DNA of 64,000 nucleotides, from positions 1,364,001-1,428,000 of the forward strand of contig OZ076409.1 of NCBI GenBank assembly GCA_964187785.1, in the 5' to 3' direction. Shown here piece after piece: positions 9,647 to 63,300 of the stretch. The stretch comes from Amphiscolops sp. MND2022. Taxonomy: Eukaryota. Positions within the stretch are counted from its first letter, which is position 1, and each line of letters starts with the position of its first letter. A program made the translations under genes and the position numbers. The notes below the pieces were generated by a model that was not told the origin of the DNA, ran no database searches, and saw nothing but the letters and a program-made list of their open reading frames with translations.

Positions 9647-9703
9647 GAAAGAATTTGATATAGTTACAATTAAAACCTTGAGGATTATCTCTATAGCTCT
9701 GTT
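9647..9703 (+). repeat. Left copy of 57-bp direct duplication flanking the Polinton
   Basis: gaaagaatttgatatag...ctatagctctgtt; 56/57 identical to 24784-24840. Confidence 0.95.
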
Positions 9704-9873
9704 AGTAGTATAGGAAATCCCGATACGGGCCACAAAAACCCCAAAAATTAAAAGTCCTCAAAACCATTGATTTTAAGCACTTTTTAGAAAACAAATCATC
9801 GCGAAAGCTCCCGCAAAATAGTGTTTTTACCATGAAGCAAAATTCACTAACCTCTATAGTTTAATGTCAACGT
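9704..9873 (+). repeat. Polinton left TIR (170 bp)
   Basis: agtagtataggaaatccc...aatgtcaacgt; 9707-9873 is the exact reverse complement of 24617-24783. Confidence 0.95.
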
Positions 9874-9904
9874 CGCACACACAACAATGAAAAATAACTA
9901 ATAA

Positions 9905-18547: not shown

Positions 18548-21500
18548 TCACAAAAAATGGGCCCGATCACTTATCAGATTTAAAAGATCTTGATGATTCA
18601 ATTTTTCTTTCAGAGTCCAAATGTTATAGTATATTTCTTCATCTGGGAGGCTTGTGCCATCCCTTGTGCTCAGTTCGGTGTAATACAAACCAACTAACTT
18701 TATACAAAGTATACAAGGACAATCACCTTTTTGTGTGTGTTTATCCCATGATAAACTTTGTATTGGATTCAAGTACATACGCTTGTCATCAAAAGGATTC
18801 AAAGCTAGCTTATCTTGTTTCTGAACAGTTAAGTTGTGAGCATTACTTCTAATAGAATAATTAGTTGCCGTAGTTGTTTCAGAATTAAATAATGAATTTA
18901 TAAATTGTGAATAAATTGGTGTATGTTGTATTCCTTTTTGTTTTGACTTCTGTGTTACCTTCTGAACTGAGCTTCCATAGCTAAAAGAATATGATTTAGA
19001 TCTCAAAGCTATGAAGTTGTCTAATTCAATAATTGGTGATGTTTCTATTTTCATTTTACCTATAACTTTCTTGTTAATAGAATTGTACAACTCATGACTT
19101 GGGTCAAGCTCACTAAAATCAAAATCATCTTTGAAGTATTCCAAATCATTTATAAGGTCTCCAGTTTTAATACTTAGAATGAATGAGTCTGTATCCGTGT
19201 AATGCAGTTTAATGTTTGCATCGCTGCGCGAACTGTAATATGGTTGTAATTTGTGATAATAAAACTCATACATTAACAATTTACTCAGTTCTAAAACACT
19301 AAACCCCAAGTATATTGGTTTATCAAAAATTACTTTTTCCTTATCAAACTTGTAAACACTGAATTCGGAGTAATGATTAGTGATTCCTTTAAAGTTTAAC
19401 TTCGATTGTCTTTTTATTATTTGATCAATATTGGTGTGGGGGATAAACTCTAAATTAGTCCGGTCTCTAACATTTTCCATAGTCTTCCCAAAGAAAGCGT
19501 TGTTCATTAATTTGTACAAGTCTTTTTCAAATTTTGTTTTTGCTTTGGTGCGTTTTTGTGTGTTATGATTAATGTATTTTTCTAACCAAAGTGATTGTTT
19601 GAACCGGTAGATTGTGTGAATCTTTGTTACTTTCATCCCCAAATTCGTGTAAAACTTGAACATCCTGTAGTGCATCATATAATTATATTTGTTTGTTAGG
19701 TCACACATAAGTTTCTCGGTTGGTTTGTAATTGGGCTGTTTTACTTTGTTCATGTATTCTGAGAAAAGATTTGGATCGGTTTTTGTTTGATAAGGACAAA
19801 GTGGAAAGTTTTCGGTTTTTTCTTTAATTTCTGCTGGATATTCTAAATCGCATTCTATAAAATATCCAAATTCATTGTCATCTGGTGTATTCAAAATGTC
19901 TTCTTTAATTTCATTCATCAGTGCAGAATCAGATTGCATAACTTCGCCGTGACAGTTCTGCGCGAAGCTACGCATCTTTTTAAAGTCTCCAATAGGAAGG
20001 TATTGACTCATTGCCCATCCATAAAGATTATTTGCATCAATGTACAAAAGTTTCGGACTTTCATTTGACTCAATGAATCTGGGTCCCATTACACTTGAAA
20101 TTCCACCACGAATATTATTTTCAAGTAGTAATAATAACTGTTTGTCTTTTATGAAATCTAATTTAATTTTAGTAAGTTTTAAACCAGCTTTCCATGTATA
20201 ACCAGGTAAAGAGTAACTGTACAACGGATTGATGCCGTACATAAGCGTGCTTGTTTCAACAAAGTTTTCGAACACGTCAGTGAGTTGTAGTACATCCATT
20301 TTTAAGTACAATTCTGTTAGTTCTTGTGCTGTTGTAATGTTGTAAGTGTCAATCAATTGTTGGGTTCTTTTTATATCATCCTCGCATGGGTAAGATTGAT
20401 TCAGTGTTGACCAATAGTCCTCTTTTGTTAGATTTAGTGGTTCATGCAGGTTGTTAAGATTGAATTTTTCGTATGGATAAGCTAGTTTTTTCTTAAATAA
20501 ATCATCAGTTAGGCCCTCATTTTGCATATAAGGAAAATCATTTAATGATGTTATAAGTTTTTGTAGACTACTACTCAAAAATCTGTATGAATCTAAAAAC
20601 CTTAAACAACCTACTTGCACACTTACATAATTTTCCAATGACTTTGGTATAATATTTATTGGTAACTTTAGATTATAAGCTGATGTTAAGAGTTCTTCAA
20701 AAATTAAATGACAATCATAACCACTGAAATTATGGAAAAATATAGGAACAAACGAACTTGACTTTTTTTTACAATTTAAATTACATTTGTTGTGGGCTGC
20801 TCCTCGGTACTTGCCTGTAAGGTGATCGTGGTCTCAAACTGTATCCTCACCAAGTGGATTTTCACAAAGCCAACACACTTTGGATTGTTGAAATGATTTT
20901 TCTTCTTCGGGGGTTATTTCAAGAGGAATATTAGTTTCGAAATAAATATTTGCAATTTTTTCTAAAGTCAACATTTCATTTACAAACCATGTTACACACG
21001 ATTCACCAAAGTATGAGCTGTAATTATTACCAAATGGTGAAATTATATAAAATCCTACTGCAATTGGAATTTGTTTAAATAATACTTTGGGCGCGATAGC
21101 TACCACAGCTTCGTGGTCATTTGTGCGAAGCTCCGCGGGTTGTGAAACTGCGTGATTAATGCATTCAAAATCTGCATATACTCTTATTGGTACGGGAACT
21201 TTCATATGATAATCTTCGAACTTTAAGTCATCCTTCCAACTGAATGTGATATTAGTTGGTTGTTGTTTTTGACAACGGTCAATGTGTTGATTGAGAATAT
21301 CCTCAGAACTAAATGCAGTTAGACATCTTCTACACACCCATTTCATGTGCGAATCCTTATTTAGTAAGCAATGCAATTTTGTTATTAGACAATAATGATT
21401 TTCAAATAGTACCAAGTCAATTTGTGATTGTAAGTAATTTTTGTTAATATGAATTGGTGTTAAAACTGTTTTTGTAAGTTCAAAAACATTTACGTTTAAA

Positions 21501-22462
21501 TTATTTAAGTTTTCGAACTTGGGAATATCTTTAATTTTCATGGGGAATTCTAAACCATTAAAAATGAGTTTGTTCGTGTGCATTGAATAACTTGATGTTC
21601 TATTTTTATGATCCTCAACAGGAAAAAGGTGTGCTAGGATGCACCACAAAAAGCAAAATTGATCATCATTTTTTATATTTATAAATGATTTATTATTCTT
21701 ATATTTTTCTGGCAACTCAACCCACGAAGAAGCTTGAATATCATTAACTTTATAAATTTCTAATATAACAGTGACAATACCATTTAACACAAAACCTGAT
21801 CCTTCTAATTGTTCATCATCTAATTTCTGCATTAATGTGTTATGCTGTGTGCCGAAGGCAATCTGTGTGCGAAGCTGCGCGTGATTGTAATTAAAATCTG
21901 ATTTAACCCATTTGTGAAATACAACTTCCTCATCATTAACTATTTTTGAAAACTTAGCTAAATAACTCAATTGGAACTTGTATCGGGGAAAGTAATTTTT
22001 ATTTAGTAAATCATTAATCTGTTCTTCAAGATGATTTGTTGGATTTACTCTCAGTTTAATGTATGTTTTTTCATTCACAATTATTTCTACGTTAGTTCCT
22101 ACGTTAGTTCCTACGTTAGTTCCAGAATCATGTAGTGTATTACCAAATGTGTTTTTTGTAGCGTTGCGATAGCTTTCGCGGTTTTGACTTCTTAACGTGT
22201 GAATTTCACTTTGGAAATGTCTTGAATTACTTATATATTTACCACAATCTTCACACCAAATTTGTGTAGCTTCGCGTTGTTGTTTGGTTTTGTTTTTATG
22301 TTCATCTGAATTTAGATGATTAGACTTGTCAGACAATGGCATAAATGTATTACATTTTTTACAATAATATTGATTTAATTTTTGTAAATGTTTTATTGAT
22401 TTTAGATGATCAGACTTGTAAGCTTTTTTATAATCAGAATTACAAATACTGCAGTTCTCCAT
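18548..22462 (-). pseudogene. Protein-primed family B DNA polymerase (~1304 aa) with one in-frame TGA at 20834-20836
   Basis: ORFs 20834-22462 and 18548-20638 are in the same frame. Read-through gives EDTV*DHDHLTGKYRGAAHNKCNL (EndoVII/HNH-like insert) and FFHNFSGYD (ExoII). Also ExoI YADFE; Pol motifs YIDANNLYG, KLMNNAFFGK, YTDTDS; vOTU-like NDDQFCFLWC..HYCLI; N-terminal C2H2-like fingers. Confidence 0.95.
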
Positions 22463-23254: not shown

Positions 23255-24082
23255 TTAATCATATAAAATGAAATTTATTTCCGTTGGTGTTAATTTCATT
23301 CTGTGTTTCATATCAACAAGGTCTTTATAGGAATCTTTTTTCAATGACTCCAGAATTGATTGTCTGGTAGAATATTCTAAATCAGACAGATAATATTCAC
23401 CATCTGAAGTAGGTATTGTTTTTCCATACTTTTCCTTTAAATAGGATTCGCTAAAAGTTAGATAATTTGCAAAAGCTTGATCTTTATTGGGAAAGGAATC
23501 GAACAAACCTTTGTCATAAAGCAGTTGAATTATGTTGTTAGTTATAGTAATTTTATTTTGATCTAGGCTATTAAAAATTTTATTAATTTCATCTTCATTT
23601 AAAATCATTCCAGCTTGACCCACCTGACTCATAAACTTTAAATTACGGACTGTTAACATTTCAAAACTATTGTTGTGTATTAAATTTAGTACCTCATTTA
23701 CTAAAACAGTTCTTTGTTCGGCGAAAGATTTTTTCATACTTTGTTCTAAATTATTTATAGTTTTTGAAAGGTCTGAAAACTGGGAATAAATATCATTCAT
23801 TAACTTTGTGTTTAATAAAACATTTTGAATTTCCTGGTGGTCTAGTGTTTGATGCGCCTTCGCGATAGCTACCGCGGAAGCTGTCACGTCTAGCATTTTT
23901 TCTTCTACTTGATTTTCTATGTCTTTTTCAAAATCGCGTTGCAAATCTTCTTTTAATTTGGAATGTGTTATTTGGGCTAATTTTTCTTGACTTTTTATCA
24001 TGTCTTTTAGCTCTCGATATTCCCTCAGTTTTAGCTGTTCACTAGAATAACCAAACTTATGAAGAGACGGAGTTTCATACAT
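23255..24082 (-). CDS. Hypothetical helical/coiled-coil protein
   Basis: 275-aa ORF with ATAAATG start inside the element; no recognised domain. Confidence 0.7.
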   Translation of the reverse strand: MYETPSLHKFGYSSEQLKLREYRELKDMIKSQEKLAQITHSKLKEDLQRDFEKDIENQVEEKMLDVTASAVAIAKAHQTLDHQEIQNVLLNTKLMNDIYSQFSDLSKTINNLEQSMKKSFAEQRTVLVNEVLNLIHNNSFEMLTVRNLKFMSQVGQAGMILNEDEINKIFNSLDQNKITITNNIIQLLYDKGLFDSFPNKDQAFANYLTFSESYLKEKYGKTIPTSDGEYYLSDLEYSTRQSILESLKKDSYKDLVDMKHRMKLTPTEINFILYD

Positions 24083-24122
24083 TTATTAAGATGAAAAAGT
24101 TGAAAAATACGCGAAGCTACGC

Positions 24123-24381
24123 AAAACCCATAGGCATGCTCATTTGCATTGGTATATGCATTGACATGCCTATGGTAAACTCAAAGCCCATCGGGAGTCC
24201 GTTCCACTAAGAGTTTCCACAGCAGGGATTATCCTTTTTAAGAACTGTGCCATTGGTGATTATTCTCCCATAGCATGTAAGTTGTAACAAAGACTGGGGG
24301 ACGTTGGATAGAAGTGAACCCCAAACACTCCGGCCGAAGCCTTAACTTTAGTCAATGCTATAACCACTAAGCTATGGGAGA
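24123..24381 (-). ncRNA. Candidate Pol III structured RNA (tRNA-like/VA-RNA-like)
   Basis: Minus strand: TATATAA at 24408-24402, A-box TAGCTTAGTGG at 24374-24364, GGC-UUCG-GCC at 24341-24332, B-box-like GGTTCACTTC at 24320-24311, 11-bp stem 24381-24371/24274-24264, first T4 at 24126-24123. Confidence 0.45.
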
Positions 24382-24426
24382 CGAATCAATGTTAGTTGTA
24401 GTTATATAAGAATAACGTATGCGCCG

Positions 24427-24614
24427 GTACATTAACGTTGGCTGTACATTAACGCTGGCTGTACAGCAACGTTGGTTGTACATTAACGTTGGTTGTACAT
24501 TAACGCTGGTTGTACATTAATGCGGGTTGTGCATTAATGCTGGTTGTGCATTAATGCTGGTTGTGCATTAATGCTGGTTGTGCATTAATGCTGGTTGTAC
24601 ATTAACGCTGGTTG
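24427..24614. repeat. Subterminal 17-bp tandem array (~11 copies) next to the right TIR
   Basis: Unit gtacattaacgYtggYt with gtgcattaatgctggtt variants. Confidence 0.9.
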
Positions 24615-24616
24615 CA

Positions 24617-24783
24617 ACGTTGACATTAAACTATAGAGGTTAGTGAATTTTGCTTCATGGTAAAAACACTATTTTGCGGGAGCTTTCGCGATGATTTGTT
24701 TTCTAAAAAGTGCTTAAAATCAATGGTTTTGAGGACTTTTAATTTTTGGGGTTTTTGTGGCCCGTATCGGGATTTCCTATACT
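24617..24783 (-). repeat. Polinton right TIR (167 bp; lacks terminal ACT)
   Basis: Ends ...gatttcctatact rather than ...ctatactact. Confidence 0.95.
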
Positions 24784-24840
24784 GAAAGAATTTGATATAG
24801 TTACAATTAAAACCTTGAGGATTATCTCTATAGCACTGTT
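24784..24840 (+). repeat. Right copy of 57-bp flanking duplication
   Basis: gaaagaatttgatatag...ctatagcactgtt. Confidence 0.95.
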
Positions 24841-25549
24841 GACACGCTCTCAAAAATATACCTCGATTGTTGGATATTTTCGAATCAAAATAGCAACATT
24901 TCACGCCAGGAAAAAACCGAAATTGTCTAGAAGGGCCATTATTTTAACGGCATTTCTCTCTGCCATTATATAAAAAGCAACTTTTAACTCGCCGTCATAG
25001 CAAAACATAAGAGCGACTGCATCTCGCGCTTGGCTTGGAGCAGAAAGGTTCAGGGGTCTGCAGAAGGTGCTCCGATTGGTTTATATTCCAGGACCCAAAA
25101 CCTTTTGAACTTATCCAGTCGCAGATCAACAGTTTTTGATGAAGAACTAAAAAAAAACAGAAAAAATTGAGAAAAATGAAAAACTGCGAAAAACATCCTA
25201 GTGGTGAATGGTCAGAAAGTCGGATGTATTGTTTTTCGCAAACAAAATGAAAATACAAACAGAAAAAATTACATTGAATAACGCGAAAGTCGAATGTTCC
25301 GAAGATATGAAATAGTTAGGGGTTTATTTTGCTCATTGTTTTACCTACTAAGTTGAAATCAAAATCGTGTTCAATCAAATGGCTACATCTAAATAATTTT
25401 TTTACTCTTTCCATTCCACATTAAGCGAAGAAAGCAGACTCCTTGTGCTCAAAACTCTGATGAAGAGTGTCACAGTCCGCGCCCGGACTGGATTGAATTA
25501 AAAGCAAACTAAAACTAATATAGGTCACCGCTTCGCCAATACGATTGAA

Positions 25550-47649: not shown

Positions 47650-47848
47650 TGTAGTAGAGGTCATTGAAGTGTTTGTAAATACGTACTAACAACCTGTCAA
47701 AAGTCTAGCTCTAGAATTCTATGCTAGCATCAGTTGCCACGGAGCCTTGAGAGAAAACACGTTTGATAGAAAACATTTCAATTCAGTTCGATAATACATT
47801 CTTCATCCTCTCAACCTTTTATATTCTTATTCGAGTTCCACGTCAACA
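47650..47848 (+). repeat. 5-prime LTR
   Basis: tgtagtagagg...cacgtcaaca. Confidence 0.97.
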
Positions 47849-50800
47849 TGGCGCTGCGAGCAGAAAGCAGCAATTCTTCCTCTTTAACACTGTCAACAAC
47901 TGCAATGTCGCACCTCGTGGGGCTTCCAGTGTATTGGCATGAGGCCAATTCAACCCCTACTATGGACTGGGACAAGTGGCTGGATCTTTTCCAGGTGGCC
48001 GTCATGGCCAAATTCTCAATCTCAATCACCGAGCTGACCCGTGAAGCTGATCAGCAGAATCCAAGGGCACGAGCTTTATTGGGGGATATGGACGAAGACC
48101 CTGCCAACAAAAAAGTGGTTAGTGTAATGTACTTGTCACTTGGAGAGGCGGCAAGGAAGTTGTTCAAAGATAAATATCCCCACACGACCCTGTGGAATCT
48201 AAAGGTGAGAGAACTAATACAACTAGCCACGGACTGTTTCCAGATAAAAAGAAACCGAACTCTCGACCGGCACAAATTTTTTTCGAGAATGCAGCAACCC
48301 GGCGAGACGCTTCAACAATTTTGGCACACGCTAAATGGGCTAGCAGCCCTTTGTGACTTCGGGGAGATAACGAAAACCCTTGTATTAGATATGTTCATCC
48401 TTCACATGAACAATAAGAAGGTACAGGAGAAACTTTGTACAGAGCCCCGCGAGCCAGATCAAGCCTTAGAATTTGCAATCGCATTCGAGGAGGGGGTGAA
48501 AAGACAAAAATCATACGGCTTACAAACAACAGAAAACCCCAAAATTGCGGTGAAAACTGAGCCTGTGTATGCAATTGAAAAATCAGCTAACCAGAGGGAA
48601 TGCTTCAGATGTGGGGAATCCAACTTTACCCCGGATCACATAAAAAATTGTACAGCAACAAACTACAGATGTAAATTCTGCAAAATTGTCGGGCATTTGG
48701 AAAAATGCTGTAATAAGAAGTTTCCCCAACGACAAAAAGAAATGCTGCAGAGACTAAAATCCAGAAGCAGTAACTTTCAAGGAATGCGAAGAGTGAATTA
48801 CATTGATGAGGAAAGCGAGGAGGAGGAATCTGACAGTAACGAAGAGCAATTAGTTCTCCAAATCGACGGAAATGGAAGCAAGCCGTTCTACATGGAAGGA
48901 ACCATGTGTGGAAATTATTTTAAAGCTATCATTGATACTGGGTCCCCGGTATCTATTTTTACAAAACGAGATTTGACAAAAATCATCGGAAAAAGAAAAG
49001 TGGTTATCAGGGAAATGATAGACAACGAGCGGTATGTTGATTACAACAAGAAACCCCTGGATCTATTGGGCTATCAATTTGTACGCGTAGAAGTTGCTGG
49101 TGTTACTGTTTCGAAGGCAAGAGTGCTAGTAGCACCAAACAGCGGAAAGTCCATAATTGGCCGTGATTGGTTAATTGCTCTACGCTACAACATTAGCCAG
49201 CCAATAGAAAGAGGTGAGTGTAAAGTAAACACTAAAACGGAGGGTGACGCCGAAACGATAAATGAGATAAGTCCCCAAGAAAGTATCAGTCCCGAAGTTA
49301 AACAAATAATGAGGGAATTTCCAGATTTGTTCAAGAGAAAAGGTCGAGTAAAAAATTACGAAATTAAAATCGATATGAAAGATAATGCGAAAATTTCACA
49401 ACAAAAGGGCCGCAGAATTCCTATTCAACTACAAGAGCAAGTAGATAAAGAAATTGAAAAACTGCTAAAAGACGGCCATATCGAAAAAGTAGACAAAATT
49501 CAAGATGATGTATTCATCCAACCAACAGTCATTACGGTTAAAAAGGATAAATCGGTGAAAATAGCGCTAGATGCACGTGCCCTGAATGAATCAATAGCTA
49601 AAGACAAATACCAGATGCCAAACTTAGATAATTTGATAGATATGATAGCAGAAGAATTGGAAAAAAGCGAAGGGGAGGCCTGGTATTCGTCTGTAGATAT
49701 GACTTACGCCTACGGGCAAATCCCACTACATGAGCTAACAAAAAGACATTGTAATTTTCAGATAGTTGGAGGAAAATCAACTGGTACATATCGATTTACT
49801 ACCGGGTACTACGGACTTACAGTAATGCCAACTGAATTTCAAAAATTAATGGATTTAACGCTAGCCAATGTAAATAGTGTATTTGTGTATATAGACGATA
49901 TCTTAATTGTAACTAAGGGAACTAAGCAACAGCATGTAAATAAAGTGAGAGAAGTCATGAGAATACTGGACGACGCCAATTTGCAGCTAAAGGCGGGAAA
50001 ATGCATAATTGCTCAAGACAGCATAGAATGGCTAGGCTTCAAATTAACGCGAACTGGCATTTCCCCAATTAACACAAAATCCCAGGGCATAAGCGAAAAA
50101 CTACGACCAACCAATTTAAAACAATTACGCTCATTTTTGGGCGCAGTAAATCAATTTAATAAATTTATACCTAGTTTAGCCTCAATTAGTTTCCCTTTTA
50201 GATCCATTTTAAAGAAAGATGCAGAGTGGGAGTGGAATGAAGATCACGAAAAAGCTTTTGTACAAATTAATAAAGAAATTAAGAGTGTAGTAGAATTATC
50301 ACATTTCAAACGGAACCAAGAAATTAGAATAATTTGTGACGCAAGCAAAAGTGGATTAGGCGCAGTACTACAACAAAAACAAAGCAATAATGAATGGAGA
50401 CCAATTTGCTTTGCCTCACGTTTTTTAACAGATTTCGAAACAAAATATTCCATAAATGAATTGGAACTTTTAGCAATCGTATGGGCAGTCGAACATTTTA
50501 AAAATTATGTATATGGTGTACAGTTCAAAGTAATATCAGACCACAAAGCGTTGATGTCAGTTTTGAAACCAAATAGAGGGAATAAAACCTTTTCAAGCAG
50601 GTTAACTAGATGGGTAGACAGATTACTACCCTTTGATTTCGAAGTAGTGCATGTAGCCGGGAGGACACTAGGAATGGCGGATTATTTATCGCGTCATCCA
50701 ACTGAATTAGAGGGAGCATCATTAAAAGCAGAAGCACTGTGGAATGAATGGTTTACTGTAAATAGTGTAAATAGTTTGAAAGATGTTTTAGAAGACGAGA

Positions 50801-52554
50801 CACAAGTGAGCGGACAAAGCGAGAGTGAAAGAATGAGCATAAACCGCATAAATCAGACCAAAACACGCGAGCCAATCAGAAAGCAGGACAAGCGCAAATC
50901 GCGGGAACCAAGTAAGATTCATTGTGCAATCAATTCAAGCAAGTCAAGCATGAGTGAAAATTCCGCGATTAAATTGCTTAATGAAAAGCTATTGCCAGCT
51001 AATTACTTTGCTGACAAAACCATACAGCGCGTTATTGCAATAGTAAAAAACTATAACAAAACCGCAGTAAGCCGTCTTCCATCCCCGTGGCGGGAAAAAT
51101 TCCAGTCGTTCTCCACGGATGATCGAAATTTCTTATACATGGATAACCGGTTGGTTATTCCCCAATCAATGCGGGCAATGATAATGTGCTCCCTTCATTA
51201 TGGGCATCCCGGTCGCGATGCGATGTTAGCTATGGTTGGAGATATTTGGTGGCCCCGAATCCACCGAGAGGTGATAGACCAAGCTCGTCTCTGTGATCAA
51301 TGCTTAGAAGCAGGTAAGAATTTAAAATGCATCCAAAGTCAAAAAGAACTAGGAAAAATCCCAAAACCAAAACAGCAAAATGACGAAATAGCGCTAGATT
51401 TTGCGGGACCCTTTCAAAATGCGAGAGAAGGAAATAAATACTTACTGGTGTCAATTGATCATTTTTCGGGGTGGCCGGAAGCGAAATTCTTAAGATGCCC
51501 AACCACGAAAAAGGTAATCGAATTTCTAAAACACTACATTGCGCAATTTGGAGTTCCAAAGAAAATAAGAACAGACCCTGGCACGGTGTTCGTAAGCGAA
51601 GAATTCGACCGATTTTGTAGACAATTCGGAATAGAACACATAATCTGCCCGGTGCGCGATCACCGGGGAAATGGCAAAATCGAGCGACTAATTAGAACGA
51701 TCAATGAACGCTTGCGAACAAATAAGCAAATAATAGTAACAAAGGACCATTCAGGACTGTCGGAAATTCTGTACGCACTACGAATAAGTAAAAAGAAAGA
51801 TGGTAGTTCACCGTTCGAAAGGCAAATGGGAAAGGAACCAAACACGGTAAAATCAAATTTAGTCTCAAAACTCCTGGATATTTCAGAGCAGGACCCCGAC
51901 CTCCAATTCGACAACTCGGACTTCCAGGACGAACTAGATTCGACAGTTCTAGTCAGGGAAAGGGCCAGAGGAACGAAGCTGCAAGGTGCTTTCGACAAAA
52001 AGACAGGAAGAAAAATAAAGGAGTCAGCGCACACTATTACTCTCCTGCCTGAAGGTTCAAAAAGACCAAAAACCTACGCAAAACGGGACTTGGCCGCCGC
52101 AACTACAGAACAAAAAGAAAGATTTCAAAAGACAAACGAGCCCGAAAAGAAAAAGAAGAAAAGAGCAATAATCGACTCGACATCCGAATCAGAAATCGTA
52201 GAAAACAAAATGGAGAAGAAGAAGAAGCAAAAGAAAAAACCCCGGCGCATCATAGAAGTTCAAATCGATAACGAGGAAGAGATGAGGCCCCCAGTTATCG
52301 ACCTAACGGCGAGTACTAGCACGGAAGAAGAACCCAAAAGAAACAATGAAGAAGAGAAAAAGAGCATCCCTGATGAGAAGCCTGAAATTGTGCAAAACCC
52401 CGAAATTGCATCATTCCCCATAAAAGCCACAGCAAAGTGGGAACGAGAGGAGAAGCCAGCAGAAGCCGCTAAAAGATCCTCAGAAAGAGTCCGCATACCC
52501 ACAAAGAGATATGGAATTGATCTCATCCAAGAGAACAATCAACCCGAAGATTAA
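47848..52554 (+). CDS. Gag-Pol polyprotein (gag with two Zn knuckles, aspartic protease, RT, RNase H, integrase)
   Basis: CFRC..H...C and CKFCKIVGHLEKC; IIDTGS; YIDD; CDASKSGLG; HYGHPG..CDQC; ALDFAGP, RTDPG, IERLIRT. Real start may be the second Met (47905). Confidence 0.97.
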   Translation: MALRAESSNSSSLTLSTTAMSHLVGLPVYWHEANSTPTMDWDKWLDLFQVAVMAKFSISITELTREADQQNPRARALLGDMDEDPANKKVVSVMYLSLGEAARKLFKDKYPHTTLWNLKVRELIQLATDCFQIKRNRTLDRHKFFSRMQQPGETLQQFWHTLNGLAALCDFGEITKTLVLDMFILHMNNKKVQEKLCTEPREPDQALEFAIAFEEGVKRQKSYGLQTTENPKIAVKTEPVYAIEKSANQRECFRCGESNFTPDHIKNCTATNYRCKFCKIVGHLEKCCNKKFPQRQKEMLQRLKSRSSNFQGMRRVNYIDEESEEEESDSNEEQLVLQIDGNGSKPFYMEGTMCGNYFKAIIDTGSPVSIFTKRDLTKIIGKRKVVIREMIDNERYVDYNKKPLDLLGYQFVRVEVAGVTVSKARVLVAPNSGKSIIGRDWLIALRYNISQPIERGECKVNTKTEGDAETINEISPQESISPEVKQIMREFPDLFKRKGRVKNYEIKIDMKDNAKISQQKGRRIPIQLQEQVDKEIEKLLKDGHIEKVDKIQDDVFIQPTVITVKKDKSVKIALDARALNESIAKDKYQMPNLDNLIDMIAEELEKSEGEAWYSSVDMTYAYGQIPLHELTKRHCNFQIVGGKSTGTYRFTTGYYGLTVMPTEFQKLMDLTLANVNSVFVYIDDILIVTKGTKQQHVNKVREVMRILDDANLQLKAGKCIIAQDSIEWLGFKLTRTGISPINTKSQGISEKLRPTNLKQLRSFLGAVNQFNKFIPSLASISFPFRSILKKDAEWEWNEDHEKAFVQINKEIKSVVELSHFKRNQEIRIICDASKSGLGAVLQQKQSNNEWRPICFASRFLTDFETKYSINELELLAIVWAVEHFKNYVYGVQFKVISDHKALMSVLKPNRGNKTFSSRLTRWVDRLLPFDFEVVHVAGRTLGMADYLSRHPTELEGASLKAEALWNEWFTVNSVNSLKDVLEDETQVSGQSESERMSINRINQTKTREPIRKQDKRKSREPSKIHCAINSSKSSMSENSAIKLLNEKLLPANYFADKTIQRVIAIVKNYNKTAVSRLPSPWREKFQSFSTDDRNFLYMDNRLVIPQSMRAMIMCSLHYGHPGRDAMLAMVGDIWWPRIHREVIDQARLCDQCLEAGKNLKCIQSQKELGKIPKPKQQNDEIALDFAGPFQNAREGNKYLLVSIDHFSGWPEAKFLRCPTTKKVIEFLKHYIAQFGVPKKIRTDPGTVFVSEEFDRFCRQFGIEHIICPVRDHRGNGKIERLIRTINERLRTNKQIIVTKDHSGLSEILYALRISKKKDGSSPFERQMGKEPNTVKSNLVSKLLDISEQDPDLQFDNSDFQDELDSTVLVRERARGTKLQGAFDKKTGRKIKESAHTITLLPEGSKRPKTYAKRDLAAATTEQKERFQKTNEPEKKKKKRAIIDSTSESEIVENKMEKKKKQKKKPRRIIEVQIDNEEEMRPPVIDLTASTSTEEEPKRNNEEEKKSIPDEKPEIVQNPEIASFPIKATAKWEREEKPAEAAKRSSERVRIPTKRYGIDLIQENNQPED
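47849..47863 (+). promoter_or_regulatory. Primer binding site (tRNA-Ser-like)
   Basis: TGGCGCTGCGAGCAG directly after the LTR CA; complementary to CUGCUCGCAGCGCCA, a Ser-type tRNA 3-prime end. Confidence 0.75.
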
Positions 52555-52695
52555 AACAAAAACATGATTGATAAACTGTACTTTGTTATAACGTAAACTG
52601 TACTACCAGTTTTATTTTGAGTTGTTGTTTTTAGTAAAACATTGTTAAAGAAAACTGAGGATTGAAATTTGTACAAATTTCCCAAAAACGGGGAA

Positions 52696-52894
52696 TGTAG
52701 TAGAGGTCATTGAAGTGTTTGTAAATACGTACTAACAACCTGTCAAAAGTCTAGCTCTAGAATTCTATGCTAGCATCAGTTGCCACGGAGCCTTGAGAGA
52801 AAACACGTTTGATAGAAAACATTTCAATTCAGTTCGATAATACATTCTTCATCCTCTCAACCTTTTATATTCTTATTCGAGTTCCACGTCAACA
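52696..52894 (+). repeat. 3-prime LTR
   Basis: Identical by eye to 47650-47848. Confidence 0.97.
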
Positions 52895-53789: not shown

Positions 53790-54773
53790 TTTTAGTCGGC
53801 GCTTTTCGTAGAAAAACACAGACTATAGCAGTGACTTTTCTTTTTTTAACCCTATTTAGCATCGCGGTACGTATTTGCACCATTTAAGATCTGCTAACTT
53901 CTAAAGGCACCAGCCCACCGTTTGGTAAAAAAACTCGTGAATAAGATTTTCTGACAAAACAACATAGAATGGCACGCATTTTCACGGATTGTTGACTTGA
54001 TGTCTCCAAAATCAGAAATACGGGACCAAGAAAAACTTAAAAAAATTAGCGCAAAATTTCCTATTTTCCTGTTTTCTTGTGTGGCCACTTTATAATACTG
54101 GGGACAAGATTAGGTCAAAGGGGCCCTAGTATGTTTTGAAAAAAGCTGAACTGCAGCCAGAGACACCACGCGTGCAAAGTTTTGGCGCAAAGTCCGGAGC
54201 CAGTGCAGCCCTGATGCTCCTCTATTGAACGCTGTATAAATCGTTTGTCGGACTCGAATAGTTTTGGAGATATTGCGGTTTAGAGTTTAAATAGAAGAGT
54301 TTTGGATGCATCCAGATATTTTTACCTCCATTCCGGGTTAAGGCCAACAAACTGACAAATTTTATAAGCTTTATAAGTTGGCTTGCACTAACGCCAACTG
54401 TCAAACTACTTCTACTGGCACTTGGCATAGAGGTTAATTAGGATTTGTTGAGGTCTGCCAAGCAGACGGACGTGGGTTCGAGTCCCAACCTTGGCAAAAA
54501 ATTTTTGTGCAGGTTATTTCGGCTTTATGAGACTTTTTTCGCAATTTTTTTAATGTCTCCAAAGGGACCCCCCTTCAATTTTTTCTATTCTGCAAGAGAA
54601 TGGATGTTCAAAAACTCCCAAAGGCCTCTCTCTTACATTTTGCGGCACTACGCGACTTACCGGAGACCAAAAAAATCGAAAAACTGTAGAAAAGAGTAGT
54701 TGACTTTTTGAAGTCCTTTTGCTATTTTTGAGCCTTAGATAAGGCTTCGACTTAGGGCCGTTCCAGGCTTGTG
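53790..54773 (-). mobile_element. HINE-like copy apparently interrupted by ~650 bp that includes a tRNA-like SINE head
   Basis: tttagtcggcgc at 53790; family body 54510-54773; B box at ~54475. Confidence 0.45.
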
Positions 54774-57976: not shown

Positions 57977-58305
57977 AGATGTCCTTCCTTTTCAATCTTC
58001 GGACAATATTTATTGTAAAGTATCTTGCCTTTTAGGATATAGGTGATTCCACTCAATCCGTCTGAGTTCAAATGAACGTTATCCTTTTTTAGGTGTTTCT
58101 TGCCAAACACTTGCCTGGAAATTCCTCTGAACTTCCAGCCTTCTTGACAAGAAGCAAGTAAAGAATTAACTTCTTTTGCTTGGAGAGGTTGAGAGTTGCG
58201 TAAAGGTATACCAAGAACGAAAACCTTTTTAGCTTTGGTTAATGAAAGATTTGCAAGATCAGATATCTGTCGAACCAAGTTTTTTGTCGTAGTGGCAAAT
58301 AGGTT
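57977..58305 (-). pseudogene. C-terminal half of an SGNH/GDSL-hydrolase-like ORF
   Basis: KVFVLGIPLRN..EVNSLL...HLKKDNVHLNSDG (block V DxxH). Confidence 0.7.
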
Positions 58306-60333
58306 GCAAAACTTTAACAAAATCGTGTTTCGTGGTCAGGAGAATCGGATGGCAGTGTTCAAAGCTCAAATTTGCATGTTTAATACGTCCGCCTACTCTT
58401 ATTATGCCAGTATTGTCAAAAAATGGAGAAAATTTTGCCAAATCCCCAACTTTGTTTGTCTTACCGAACGTTTGCTTTTCTTCATGAACTACCGGAAAGG
58501 TTTCTCGTTGAATTAGCTCGAAAACCCTTTCTTCCGCCCGTTTCAATTCACCGGGAAGTAAAACTTTGGGTTGACTTCCAAACTTCACACGTAGACAAAA
58601 TGCTATAACACGCACACATTTGGAAAAGCTACTAAATCTGCTCCAATCAACTATTGGCTCCTGAGTCATGCTTGTGTTGGCAATTACTGCAACTGCAGCA
58701 CTTTCGTCAGGCACAAAGTTAACTGGTTGCAGAGACAAAAGCCAATCGTCAGGGTGGTCTTTGAGCCAAATTGGTCCAGATAACCAATCGCTTTCGGTCA
58801 ATTTCTGTATAGTAATTCCACGTGTTCCAATATCTGATGGATTCAATTCACCTTTAACATGCTTCCAATCGTCAATTGTGAAATTTTCCAAGATCTCAGC
58901 TGCTCTGTTAGCTACAAAAACATTTTGTCTTTTGTCAGCTGAATGTAACCATTGAAGCACAATGACTGAATCAGTCCAATGAGTAACACTGTCAATCTGT
59001 AAGTCATGTTCTTGAGCAATCAAGGTTCTCAATCTTACTGAATACACAGCTGCTTGGAGCTCTAAACGAGGTATAGACAATTGTTTGATGGGAGCTATTC
59101 TACATTTGCCCAAAACAAAAGAGACTTCAACTCCATCGTTGACTTCTGCTCGAAAGTAAGCGACGATGCACATAGCTTCTAAAGATGCATCACTGAAGAT
59201 GTGCAGTTGATTATTTTTAGGACTATCGGGGAAATAATTCCGAGGAAGTGAGGTGTTTTTAATTGTTTGCATTTCTGTCACCCATTCCAGGAATACCTGT
59301 TTATCATCATCTGCAATTTTCTCATCCCATGATTGGCCAAAGCGAATCCAAATACTTTTCAAAAGTATTCTCATTCGCATAGTAAAAGGTGCAAAATTCC
59401 CATGGGATCAAAAACTGAGGAAACAAAAGATAGCACTACTCGTTGAGTGATATCTTGCGGACATTCTTTGCTAGGTCCTCGAAATATTTGTAAACAATCT
59501 TTATCGGTTATCCACTCCAGACCTAGAATTGGAGATGATTCTGCGTTCAATGTAAATTCGTTTGCTTCTAAACGATCTTCTACTGGGATTCTTTGCAAAA
59601 CTTCTGAACAGTTGCTGGCCCATTTCTTCAATGTGAAGCCACTGCGCTTCAGTGTTTCCATCAACTGCTGATAACATTCGATGGCCTCTTGTGTTGTATC
59701 AACACTTTTGACAAGGTCGTTCATATAGAAGTTTTTGTCTATTGTAGCGGCTGCTACAGGGGATTCGCTTTTGTTTTCTCTACCGCACTGCTGGAAACCA
59801 TAATTGGCACACGTTGGAGAACTCTTTGCTCCAAACACATGCCTGGTATATTCGAAAATTTCAATGTTATCATCTGGTTTATCTCGCCAGAGAAAACGTA
59901 AAACTCTACATTCTTCTTTCGGAACTGCTACTTGTAAAAACATTGACTCTATATCGGCAGTGATTGCTATCAGATGTTCTCTGAACCTGAAAACAATTCC
60001 CACTAAGTTGCGCAATAAATCAGGTCCGCTGAGAAGTTTGTCATTCAGCGAAACGCCTGTAAACTTCGAAGCTGCATTACAAACTCTTCGAACCTTGCCT
60101 GGCTTGTGTGGATGCTTGACAGGATGGTGAGGTAAATACCATTGCATGTCATTCTCTGTACTCACAACTTCTTCTTGTTCCAGTTTTCGTACAAAATGAT
60201 TTTCCAAGTCCTTCTCAATGGTAGCTTTGTAAGCTTCTTTCAACTCTGGATCCTTGCTTAATCTTCTCTCCATTGACAAAAACTGTTGGTAAGCAGAATA
60301 ATTGTTGTTCGGCAGAATAGGGTTGTCATCGGC
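58305..60333 (-). pseudogene. BEL/Pao pol: RT (YMND for YMDD), frameshift at ~59375-59400, RNase H, truncated at the start of integrase
   Basis: WYLPHHPV, SLNDKLLSGP, ADIESMFLQV, FGAKSSP; LHIFSDAS, IPRLEL, WTDS, FVANR, NPSDIGTRG, IRVGGRI, HPILL. Confidence 0.93.
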
Positions 60334-63300
60334 CTAGAGGAGTCCTACTTCAAATCGTTCACCGTTATGCTTGGTAGTTTTTTCCAAAATTGCTTGGGCT
60401 CTCAGTTCTTCCTTGGAACGTCCTGAGACATCACACACGGACGCGTATGTCTCCATGTCCCACCATTTTTTCATTTGATCCGCTAAAGGATCCGAAGATA
60501 CGGAAAAGTTACACGAAGCTGCCATACACTTCGTTTCTTTTTTGGGTAATGCCCCACTGACTGTCCATCCCAAGGAAGTTTTGACTGCCCAAGGCTCATC
60601 CCTACCACCTGACTTGTACTCAAGAGGTCTGATCAGGTGATACGCATCTTGACCGAGAATGACCTTGACATCAGCCATTGAGACCTTTATATCCGGCAAA
60701 TTGTTCAAATAAACATAGTTTTCTTTCATCTTCGTAAAGTCATAGATTTTGTCACCGACATTCAAGTTTGGATGACTGCAGAAGGCCAGTTCTTCCCCTG
60801 CAGTATCTGCTTCACTTGGACCAATTCTGGTGGTAACAAATTCAGTCTTCATTTCAGATAACCCATGAATTCCAGCTACCGACATCACAGATTCTTTACC
60901 TTTCAACTTCAACAGGTCGACCAAAGTTTTGTCCATGAAAGAAACTGTGGATCCAGTATCACAAAGAGCTATCGTTTCAACGCTTCGTTTGTCATTTCCA
61001 ATTGAAATTGGTATCAACTGTAGGAAACCACTGCTACCAGTTGAGAGCATTGAAGAACCGCCGGCTCTGTTTTGAGACGAGGGCTCCTCCGATTTCTTGT
61101 CCTTTTCAGTTTTGGAAGAATCTGAATGCAAAAGCTTGTTATGTTTCTTGGTGCATCCATTTACTCCACACACTCTGTCCGACTTGCAGTCTTTCGTCAA
61201 ATGCGAGTTTAAACAGCAGAAACAAAGTTTATACTTCTTCAATGTTTCGTATCTCTCATTAACTCCTTGTTGTTTGAACTTTGTACACATCCAAATTTTA
61301 TGGTCGCCATCCTTCAATGGACATTGTTTTGTTGGTGCAGATGTCGATTTGTTCTGCTCATTAGCAGCGAATGTTAAGTTTTCCACTTTTTCCGTGTTGC
61401 TGTAACTCTTTTTCTCTGGTTGAGACTTGAATTGTACTGTCATTTCATCGTGGACATAAGCAACTTCGTTCAGCCATTCGCTAAATCTGCAAAGATCAGC
61501 ATGGTAGTAGCCTTTGCTCTTCGCCAGGAAAAACCACTTGGTTTTCAATTCAGATGGTAACTTCCTCAACGCTGAATTCAAGACGGACTCGGAATACAAA
61601 TCTCCTGTGAAACCGAATTGTTTTAACACATTAACGCAGGTAGTAATCAACTGTGCGTACTTGATGATAGCCGCTGAGTCATGCGACTTGATGAGCGGAC
61701 TTAAATGGATTTGCTTCATCTGAGCATTCACAATCGTTTGTGGAGGTCCGAAATTAGTAACCAAAGCGTTCCACGCTGCACTGTACATGACTCCTGAGTA
61801 TCCGAGACCCGCAATAGCCGCCTTGGCTTTGCCTTTAACGAGTGTTTTCAAGTGACTCATTTTCGCATTGTCATCAATTGGCGCAATATGGATTGTAGCT
61901 GTGAACAAGCTGGACCATTCTGGCCATTCCAATGGGTCTCTATGAAAGTCAGATAATTTCAATTTAGGTAAGCTTGTTTGAACAAAATGTACAGGTTGCT
62001 GTACAGGTACTGCTGGTGTGAAGGAAGGATATTCGCTTTCTATTTTGAATGAAGGTTTCGCCAATTCATTTTAGGCTTTGGTTTCTCATTGCCTTGCTGG
62101 AGCAAGGTGTTTCTTTTCGGAAAAGTAATTCCAGTGTTTTTTTTGGGGGTGACTCGCCCGAACCTCGTCCTTGAGTTCTCGATAGTAGATTTTTGTGATC
62201 AAATGTTTGGAACTTCTGAGACGGTTCACTTGACTCACCTTTATTTCCTACTTCTCTGCTAGATTCCTTCGGTTGTGAGAAGCACTTGTCTAAGCCTTCA
62301 ACGCCTTGATCTAGCCAACTTTTGATATCGCTGTTTTTGTCCTCTTCAAGAGTAAGAGACATCAGGCTAGGACATATTGAAGAAGCTCGAAATGATCCTT
62401 CAGCCTCTTCTATTTGCAATCGCATTTGCTGCCTTCCAAAAGCTTTCTTGCGCTTCAATTCAGCAATTTCTGATTCTGCCTGCAACTCTTGGAGCTTCTT
62501 TTCCATTTCCATCTCCCTACGGGTCTTCTCTTGTTCCAACTCACGCTCACTTTTTTCTATTTCCATTTGTGATTTCTGATCCATCAGTTCAGCTTGTATC
62601 TCCAATCGTCTTCGTTCACTCATTTTCGAAACATTGGACCCTACTTTTGAACCGGCCTTTTTTGCTGGCTCACTCATAGCTAATGTTCGAGTAGGGGAGT
62701 AATCTGTCAACGATAGTCTTTTTTGGGAACCTGGAGTAGCCGATTGAGGTTGAAAAGATGGGTTATCGAAGCGGTCGTTAATTCTGAGGAACAGCGTTGA
62801 TTGATTTGCCTCTCTAAGCATTTTCAATCCTTTGTCAAGTGTTTCATTCGCTTTAGATTTTTCCAAGGCAGGAGAATGGTTCTCATCCAAGGCATGAGAA
62901 CGGTTCTCATCGTCTTTTGATAACTCCGAACTTTCAAACCCAGACACTTCAGGTGTTTCGATGTTTTCCAATGGATCGTTTGCCGCTGTATTGCAGCTAT
63001 CAATTTAATTCAGAGCGTCAGTCATTTCTTGTTGAATGATAGGGTTCATTTCTGTGACGACGTTTTCTGCGGTCGCAAGAATAGTCAAGAAATCGGATTT
63101 GAGAAGACTGCGCCTGGTTTCGAGACTTTTATCTAAAATGGCTTTGTTGTCTTGAAGTTTCTGAATAGCCATTTTCACTCTACTCGACCTTGCGCCTTGT
63201 TCAATTATATTGTCTATTGTAGTTTTTTCTGCAACAATTGCTCGTTTGGCGTCGTAAAACTGATCGCAGAGTTTAAAATACTTCATTAAATCACTTTCAT

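Follow-up and report, generated by a model that had tools for sequence, protein, structure and literature searches.

Polintons are related to adenoviruses and, as abundant integrated relatives of these viruses, raise the question of how hundreds of near-identical copies spread despite silencing. The adenovirus VA RNAs are RNA polymerase III (Pol III) transcripts with A and B boxes, for which an origin from tRNA genes has been proposed and which load Dicer and Exportin-5 (PMC6599070, PMC4378190). The TMERs of MHV68 place hairpins and a poly-U end downstream of a tRNA-derived head (PMC4378190), the Pol III pre-miRNAs of BLV and foamy viruses have type 2 promoters with degenerate B boxes in the viral genome (PMC12498455, PMC4378190), and protist Polinton-like viruses carry tRNAs and other Rfam RNAs (PMC12220804). 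For Polintons themselves, the literature that we searched, which lay outside subscription journals, repeat-database reports and supplements, yielded no Pol III or VA-like RNA. By combining predicted folds with the comparison of genomic copies, we describe here a unit on the minus strand of a 64-kb window (the whole stretch of DNA that was analysed, numbered from its first letter) that is, as judged from its sequence, real, Polinton-owned and structurally conserved.

Like VA RNAI/II and EBER1/2, the unit is small and structured, carries an internal A box and a B-box-like motif, ends at a T run and opens with a stem at its 5′ end, and it belongs to a DNA virus-like element of the adenovirus-related lineage. 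Unlike them, it would give an RNA of 250–290 nt or longer instead of about 160, its 5′ stem is already closed at +118 in a total of about 255 nt and is followed by three further hairpins in place of a long apical stem, and it has an exchangeable 3′ half and resides in terminal repeats, often twice; PKR, moreover, is to our knowledge absent from invertebrates. The preliminary description had proposed a VA-RNA-like Pol III gene, of which a conserved, structured unit of Pol III type belonging to a Polinton survives; the likeness of architecture does not, as the long stem fails to join the 5′ to the 3′ end and the 3′ half is swapped between subfamilies. No Rfam family matched, and the VA model itself found nothing up to E 10 in 23500–25000 or up to E 1 in loci L092, L154 and L139. 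Judged by its boxes, the unit combines an A box that 97 of 100 heads preserve with a B box that bears one fixed mismatch at the invariant A, 54 nt apart from start to start. By analogy, then, it appears to resemble VA RNAs and EBERs in promoter type and probable role and not to be a member of the VA family. The tRNA genes of protist Polinton-like viruses are likewise tRNA-type Pol III units in Polinton-related genomes, but those are recognisable by ARAGORN and Rfam (PMC12220804), whereas the present unit lacks an anticodon arm and a cloverleaf. Contrasting with the retroviral pre-miRNAs of BLV and foamy viruses, it belongs to a DNA element and places a long conserved head before its hairpins.

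The host of the unit is a 15-kb Polinton with the features by which Polintons/Mavericks are recognised: terminal inverted repeats (171 nt, 99% complementary, 9707–9877 against 24613–24783), an integrase, two A32-like ATPases and a double-jelly-roll capsid gene. Measured from the right terminal repeat core, the unit begins 230 nt further inward, upstream of a gene for 275 aa. The protein-primed DNA polymerase B by which Polintons are also recognised may be represented by two ORFs at 18548–22462 (542 and 659 aa, no Pfam match), which look by their motifs like a split polymerase. The setting comprises:

9704..9877, plus strand: left terminal inverted repeat core; the RNA unit is absent after it in the window copy, unlike in many sister copies
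24613..24783, minus strand: right terminal inverted repeat core, 99% complementary to 9707–9877
24427..24614, minus strand: 17-bp tandem repeats from the terminal repeat core to the unit, variable between copies
23255..24082, minus strand: first downstream protein gene, 275 aa, no Pfam match, probably outside the RNA

The right end of the element is 3 nt shorter than the left. On either side of this copy lies one member of a direct duplication of 57 bp with one mismatch (9647–9703 and 24784–24840), in place of the short, 6-bp target duplication typical of Polintons, which perhaps reflects repair-assisted insertion.

The unit itself, with +1 at 24381, reads as follows:

24402..24408, minus strand: TATA-like element TATATAA; AT-rich TATA-like 7-mers lie at −28..−22 in most of 100 heads
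24382, minus strand: G at −1 after a pyrimidine, the likely Pol III start; G in 98 of 100 heads
24264..24381, minus strand: conserved 118-nt tRNA-derived head, an interrupted rod
24381–24371/24274–24264, minus strand: stem P1 of the rod, 11 bp
24365–24356/24289–24280, minus strand: stem P2 of the rod, 10 bp
24353–24350/24295–24292, minus strand: stem P3 of the rod, 4 bp
24364..24374, minus strand: A box, which fits TRGYNNARNNG (PMC12498455); TRGCYYAGTGG is kept in 97 of 100 heads
24332..24341, minus strand: 3-bp hairpin with a UUCG loop; stem kept (94.8% of cells paired), loop variable in other forms
24311..24320, minus strand: B-box-like motif, unchanged in 92 of 100 heads, with C where tRNAs have the invariant A58
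24176..24263, minus strand: mid body of forms A and D, two predicted weaker hairpins whose predicted folds differ among diverged copies
24128..24175, minus strand: terminal hairpin with a constant basal stem of 11–14 bp and a hypervariable apex
24094..24126, minus strand: tandem T runs, the likely Pol III terminator (T4 at 24126–24123, T5 at 24107–24103 and T5 at 24098–24094)

All elements named in the preliminary description were read where it had placed them, among them TATATAA upstream of 24381 (24408–24402), the A box at +8 (24374–24364), the one-mismatch B-box-like 10-mer 54 nt after the A-box start (24320–24311), the 11-bp stem of +1..+11 (24381–24371 with 24274–24264) and the final 11-bp hairpin (24175–24165 with 24138–24128). 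Its terminal TTTT is the first T4 at 24126–24123, and because two T5 runs lie downstream, the RNA could end as much as 30 nt beyond it. Over its 259 nt the unit folds at −91.2 kcal/mol (z −5.2; none of 200 shuffles folds as well), the head alone at z −3.6 and the body alone at z −4.1. Neither the box pair nor a T4-free stretch of 250 nt is rare by chance, so that conservation has to carry the argument: the A box together with a one-mismatch B box is expected 0.28 times per shuffled 64 kb, and 11 of the 174 T4-free gaps on the unit's strand of the element reach at least 250 nt. A second match to A box plus B-box-like motif occurs in the window at 54423 on the plus strand, within an abundant host repeat, and is at chance level. 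A 12-bp motif that lies at 24111–24122 in the window is inserted at many sites across the family, including after the terminator, inside the head and in hairpin loops; a 7-mer on one of its strands presumably forms an unusually stable DNA mini-hairpin.

The genome search leads us to regard the unit, very probably, as a structured part of the element itself. A 28-nt core of the unit has 423 exact matches in the 1.07-Gb genome and its reversed control none, and a DNA search returned 704 candidate copies, of which 40 were scored. The first 30 core matches by position all lie in Polinton ends: 28 have both the terminal repeat and a terminal gene, one the gene only and one the repeat only, with 18 right ends (the window included), 11 left ends and seven pairs of inward-facing units spaced 14.3–14.8 kb apart. 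When copies were picked instead by the right-hand gene (23255–24082), 29 of 29 others carried the unit, and among left ends picked by the left-hand gene it was present in 10 of 30 and absent in 20. The unit thus belongs to an extended terminal repeat, of which it is a constant component on the right and an optional one on the left. For diverged copies we used search patterns that omit the 5′ letters of the window; these found 16 and 24 loci, from the latter of which three unrelated chance matches (L137, L148 and L151) were dropped and five duplicated the set of 16.

These data bear directly on whether a host tRNA-derived SINE inserted once in an ancestral Polinton and has since been a passive passenger. 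A tRNA-derived SINE joins a tRNA-derived head to an unrelated body, and the unit has that layout, including a tRNA-related head with A and B-box-like motifs; host repeats also hold other tRNA-like heads, and one degenerate head among the pattern matches (L153) has no detectable Polinton flank. The unit differs from SINEs in that it is not independently dispersed, all 30 copies taken in order of position lying at Polinton ends, that an A-rich tail and a target duplication are missing around it in the window, and that it is conserved with covariation, better than the adjacent genes in 23 of 24 cases and with compensatory changes; the host tRNA-like units, moreover, share only the D arm with it. 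We consider the passenger explanation largely refuted and the least credible of those weighed here, the insertion of a host SINE at this site having been one outcome that the preliminary description had named as fatal to its proposal.

A second such outcome, boxes and stems that fail to persist in related elements, did not materialise either. Four sequence forms occur: form A of the window, form B with a different body, form C from another organism (a single 531-nt contig of depth 3.25) and form D with a window-like body. Across 26 diverged copies, head positions +35..+106, which lie outside the search patterns, are 0.905 identical to the window, whereas the adjacent gene reaches 0.82 and the terminal repeat 0.77, and the head exceeds the adjacent gene in 23 of 24 copies. 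Inside form A, however, there are bins of the gene that vary no more than the head does. A head-pattern search of the genome returned six Polinton heads of known forms and seven short host tRNA-like units and no fifth form. Public relatives were found neither by the capsid protein in viral contigs, nor by the protein of the 275-aa gene in metagenomes, nor by head patterns in metagenome and viral contigs, and a protein search gave 541 matches, of which the 120 listed were all at least 83% identical, so that distant families are absent among the matches listed.

Comparison and modelling together indicate that the head keeps a rod-like fold on the minus strand. We aligned 32 of the 64 distinct heads from 100 head-bearing loci, leaving out copies with larger indels and near-duplicates of form A. 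Under a rod model with P1 (11 bp), P2 (10 bp), P3 (4 bp) and two small capping hairpins, 92.9% of 1048 cells pair; two-sided change affects 31 cells in this alignment versus 10.9 in shuffles (0/500), and covariation is 0.144 versus 0.092 shuffled (0/500), with slid-partner controls at 0.026–0.055. Measures robust to kinship are not significant, whether they count pairs with two-sided change (5 versus 3.6 shuffled, 97/500) or pair types (24 versus 23.2, 186/500), and the independent changes number about five when counted by eye, by form only across the four forms and not on a tree. At P1 +6, the pair is C-G in form A, A-U in B and D and U-A in C, with U-G intermediates in the genome; P1 +7 and +9 are A-U, G-U or G-C, the latter with a G.G mismatch fixed in form D (8 cells), and one P3 pair is A-U in 22 heads and U-A in 10. 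In form C all 11 P1 pairs hold while P3 and the outer part of P2 are broken, and P2 has fixed mismatches of A.A (14 cells) and A.C (7 cells). RNAalifold recovers P1–P3 but favours a G4/C4 helix near the B box, and a modelled hairpin around the B box is uncertain. Since the D-arm sequence pairs over long range, the head appears to form no cloverleaf. Similarly, an anticodon-like ttgac/gttaa stem that had been pointed out earlier is present as letters (24355–24351/24346–24342) and probably not real as a pairing, its bases being paired over long range; we rejected it because form D breaks it and keeps P3. The C(UUCG)G tetraloop fared better as a hairpin (24341–24332) than as a loop, which is not conserved across forms.

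An excess of G-U cells (93) over A-C cells (19) points to folding on the unit's own, minus, strand. A separate suggestion is that the fold acts in single-stranded DNA, where it would signal replication, panhandle formation or packaging close to the 5′ end of each displaced strand, a reading that we regard as improbable. Replication by strand displacement, the mode expected of this lineage, would favour such a signal, and the two ends of the element carry the unit within the extended terminal repeat in opposite orientations. Its strand also folds well as DNA (z −4.3), G-T wobbles forming in DNA too, but the DNA centroid loses P2 and P3, and such a signal leaves the A box, the B-box-like motif, the start G and the terminal T runs unexplained, as well as the dispensability of the unit at many left ends. 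UUCG and GNRA loops are, in addition, RNA-type motifs, although the retention of GNRA in this family is weak.

The promoter signals of the unit differ from those of host tRNA genes. The B-box position of the invariant A is C in 92 of 100 heads and A in 213 of 215 contexts of host tRNA genes, which have a TATA in only 1 of 215 contexts and end mostly at T5 (161) and sometimes at T4 (27). In 29 of 30 copies of the unit, a T4 at +239..+262 is followed by T5 or longer, from which the RNA would be about 245–290 nt. Degenerate B boxes also occur in Pol III units of BLV (PMC12498455). As to origin, the D arm of the head resembles host tRNA-Lys and short host tRNA-like units, which share only that arm with it; an Rfam tRNA search of the genome found mainly Lys and Arg arrays, and a pattern of D arm plus canonical B box matched a single Polinton copy and, apart from it, only the tRNA-like head of one unrelated repeat. 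The unit itself gave no ARAGORN gene and no Rfam or tRNA match above noise, and a functional tRNA gene was rejected on account of the missing cloverleaf, 7-nt anticodon loop and A58.

Among the host tRNA genes, those for tRNA-Arg(TCT) and of the tRNA-Lys(TTT) type form large arrays in tandem (L107–L136; G000:C7 at about 5.23–5.34 Mb, C8 at about 47.9 Mb, and C1504), in which many Lys bodies have a changed anticodon (Glu, Asn, Thr, Arg or stop). Short degenerate tRNA-like units (L226–L231, L233, L235 and L192) have a T run at about +75, are ARAGORN-negative and lie in part in a 1587-bp tandem repeat.

The expression material comprises contigs of two runs, with word shares of 0.08 and 0.22. In a metatranscriptome from another source, six short contigs of depth 2.5–4.5 fall on the unit, the run having been chosen by this stretch and DNA being a possible origin of the contigs; one of them extends 12 nt past the first T4. 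The terminal repeat and the gene are left uncovered in this run, a gap to which we attach no evidential weight. Contigs on 24279–24362 include several head variants with differing 5′ and 3′ loose ends, which suggests more forms in a related organism.

That one contig crosses the first T4 is what would be expected if the unit were a structured 5′ leader, or a trans-spliced outron, of a Pol II transcript running from the TATA element or the terminal repeat into the first gene, an alternative that in its 5′ UTR form had been raised earlier. The TATA-like element stands at Pol II spacing from 24382, the gene lies on the same strand with its ATG 41 nt from the first T4, and the unit precedes the right-hand gene in 29 of 29 copies. 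Against these points, a 299-nt leader would hold 10 upstream ATGs with short open frames, the unit stands before two unrelated genes, of which the left one lacks it in 20 of 30 loci, 97 of 100 heads retain the A box, and T runs close two unrelated bodies. We therefore find a Pol II leader quite unlikely, and return to the Pol III unit.

Downstream of the head, forms A and D have a body of three hairpins and form B an array of hairpin repeats, both ending at T runs, so that, on sequence grounds, the head is best described as a constant cassette and the hairpin body as exchangeable cargo. The terminal hairpin of forms A and D ranges from 24 to 75 nt across 110 loci, which were not de-duplicated, and is 48 nt in the window allele and 35 nt in the common allele (29 of 110 loci). 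The form B body has from 1 to more than 28 repeats of 41–49 nt, each a hairpin, and a form B unit folds at z −6.1; two G-U pairs are kept in 80 and 72 of 82 repeats, and the loop is GAAA in 58 of 82, with 15 of the 24 variants still GNRA, a retention that is weak at locus level (9 of 18 variant loops). A run of T4 or longer follows the last repeat by 11–63 nt in 12 of 13 form B loci, and a premature T4 occurs in 4 of 13. In one form B copy (L139; repeats L193–L222, G000:C2:6654419–6658365), a 48-nt hairpin repeat has grown to an array of about 3.7 kb, perhaps an instance of a Polinton RNA unit giving rise to a satellite.

The variation at the 3′ end also speaks to the possibility that the unit is a tRNA-microRNA precursor of the TMER kind, in which a cloverleaf head would be cut off by RNase Z and a 3′ hairpin would yield a microRNA. 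The sequence of tRNA-derived head, hairpins and poly-U end matches the MHV68 layout (PMC4378190), the hairpin of the window allele is 48 nt, and an unpaired stretch follows P1. The freely varying apex of the terminal hairpin argues against a fixed microRNA. Unlike in the TMERs, the head is a rod, as covariation supports, and not a cloverleaf (no ARAGORN gene, no Rfam match), the hairpins vary in length instead of keeping to that of a pre-miRNA, and form B has no such hairpin at all; on these three grounds we rejected TMER membership, and we hold a microRNA precursor to be very improbable.

We favour instead, with a probability of roughly 0.5 for the reading as a whole, that the unit encodes a Pol III RNA by which the element sets a double-stranded RNA decoy against host small-RNA silencing. 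Host Pol III would transcribe the unit into a non-coding RNA of 250–290 nt; TFIIIC would bind the internal boxes, the upstream TATA-like element perhaps compensating for the weak B box, and Pol III would start near G24382 and stop in the T4/T5 runs ahead of the protein gene. A captured tRNA gene, refolded so that its D arm pairs over long range, would avoid tRNA processing, and the head might then serve as a promoter-plus-scaffold cassette for a 3′ body of exchangeable short hairpins, which would titrate host proteins that bind double-stranded RNA or hairpins, such as Dicer partners or Exportin-5. That a discrete Pol III transcript arises from the unit seems to us rather probable. That a silencing decoy is its main job is tentative: stems of 11–16 bp are short for Dicer substrates, which counts against a decoy. 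Equally speculative is a more specific picture of a modular terminal-repeat cassette in which a tRNA-derived rod would be promoter and scaffold, and swappable cargo, arrays of identical GNRA-loop hairpins included, would dampen silencing by the host in the manner of a multivalent sponge.

At either end of the element the unit stands inward of the terminal repeat and ahead of the first gene. This placement, together with the replaceable sequence of its body, would also fit a DNA barrier, bound by TFIIIC and Pol III, that shields the genes from heterochromatin and makes RNA only as a by-product; tRNA genes and B-box sites do serve as TFIIIC-dependent barriers (PMC12409998). A barrier requires a good B box, however, and that of the unit is deviant; it has no need of long-range pairing held by two-sided changes and G-U pairs, and the unit is missing from 20 of 30 left ends picked by the left gene. 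We judge the barrier unlikely and retain the RNA decoy as our working model. Were the picture of a modular sponge correct, it would represent a first RNA-based counter-defence among Polintons and show, as a living model, how VA-type RNAs arise from tRNA genes. A cassette with compensatory changes offers a precise test of whether Polintons encode RNA tools as adenoviruses and herpesviruses do, and the four forms, G-U intermediates and swapped bodies would trace a route from tRNA gene to viral non-coding RNA such as has been proposed for VA (PMC6599070).

Elsewhere in the window, 47650–52894 and 58259–61860 hold BEL/Pao fragments and a Gypsy-like LTR element that is young, its 199-bp repeats being identical, and has an ORF of 1568 aa.
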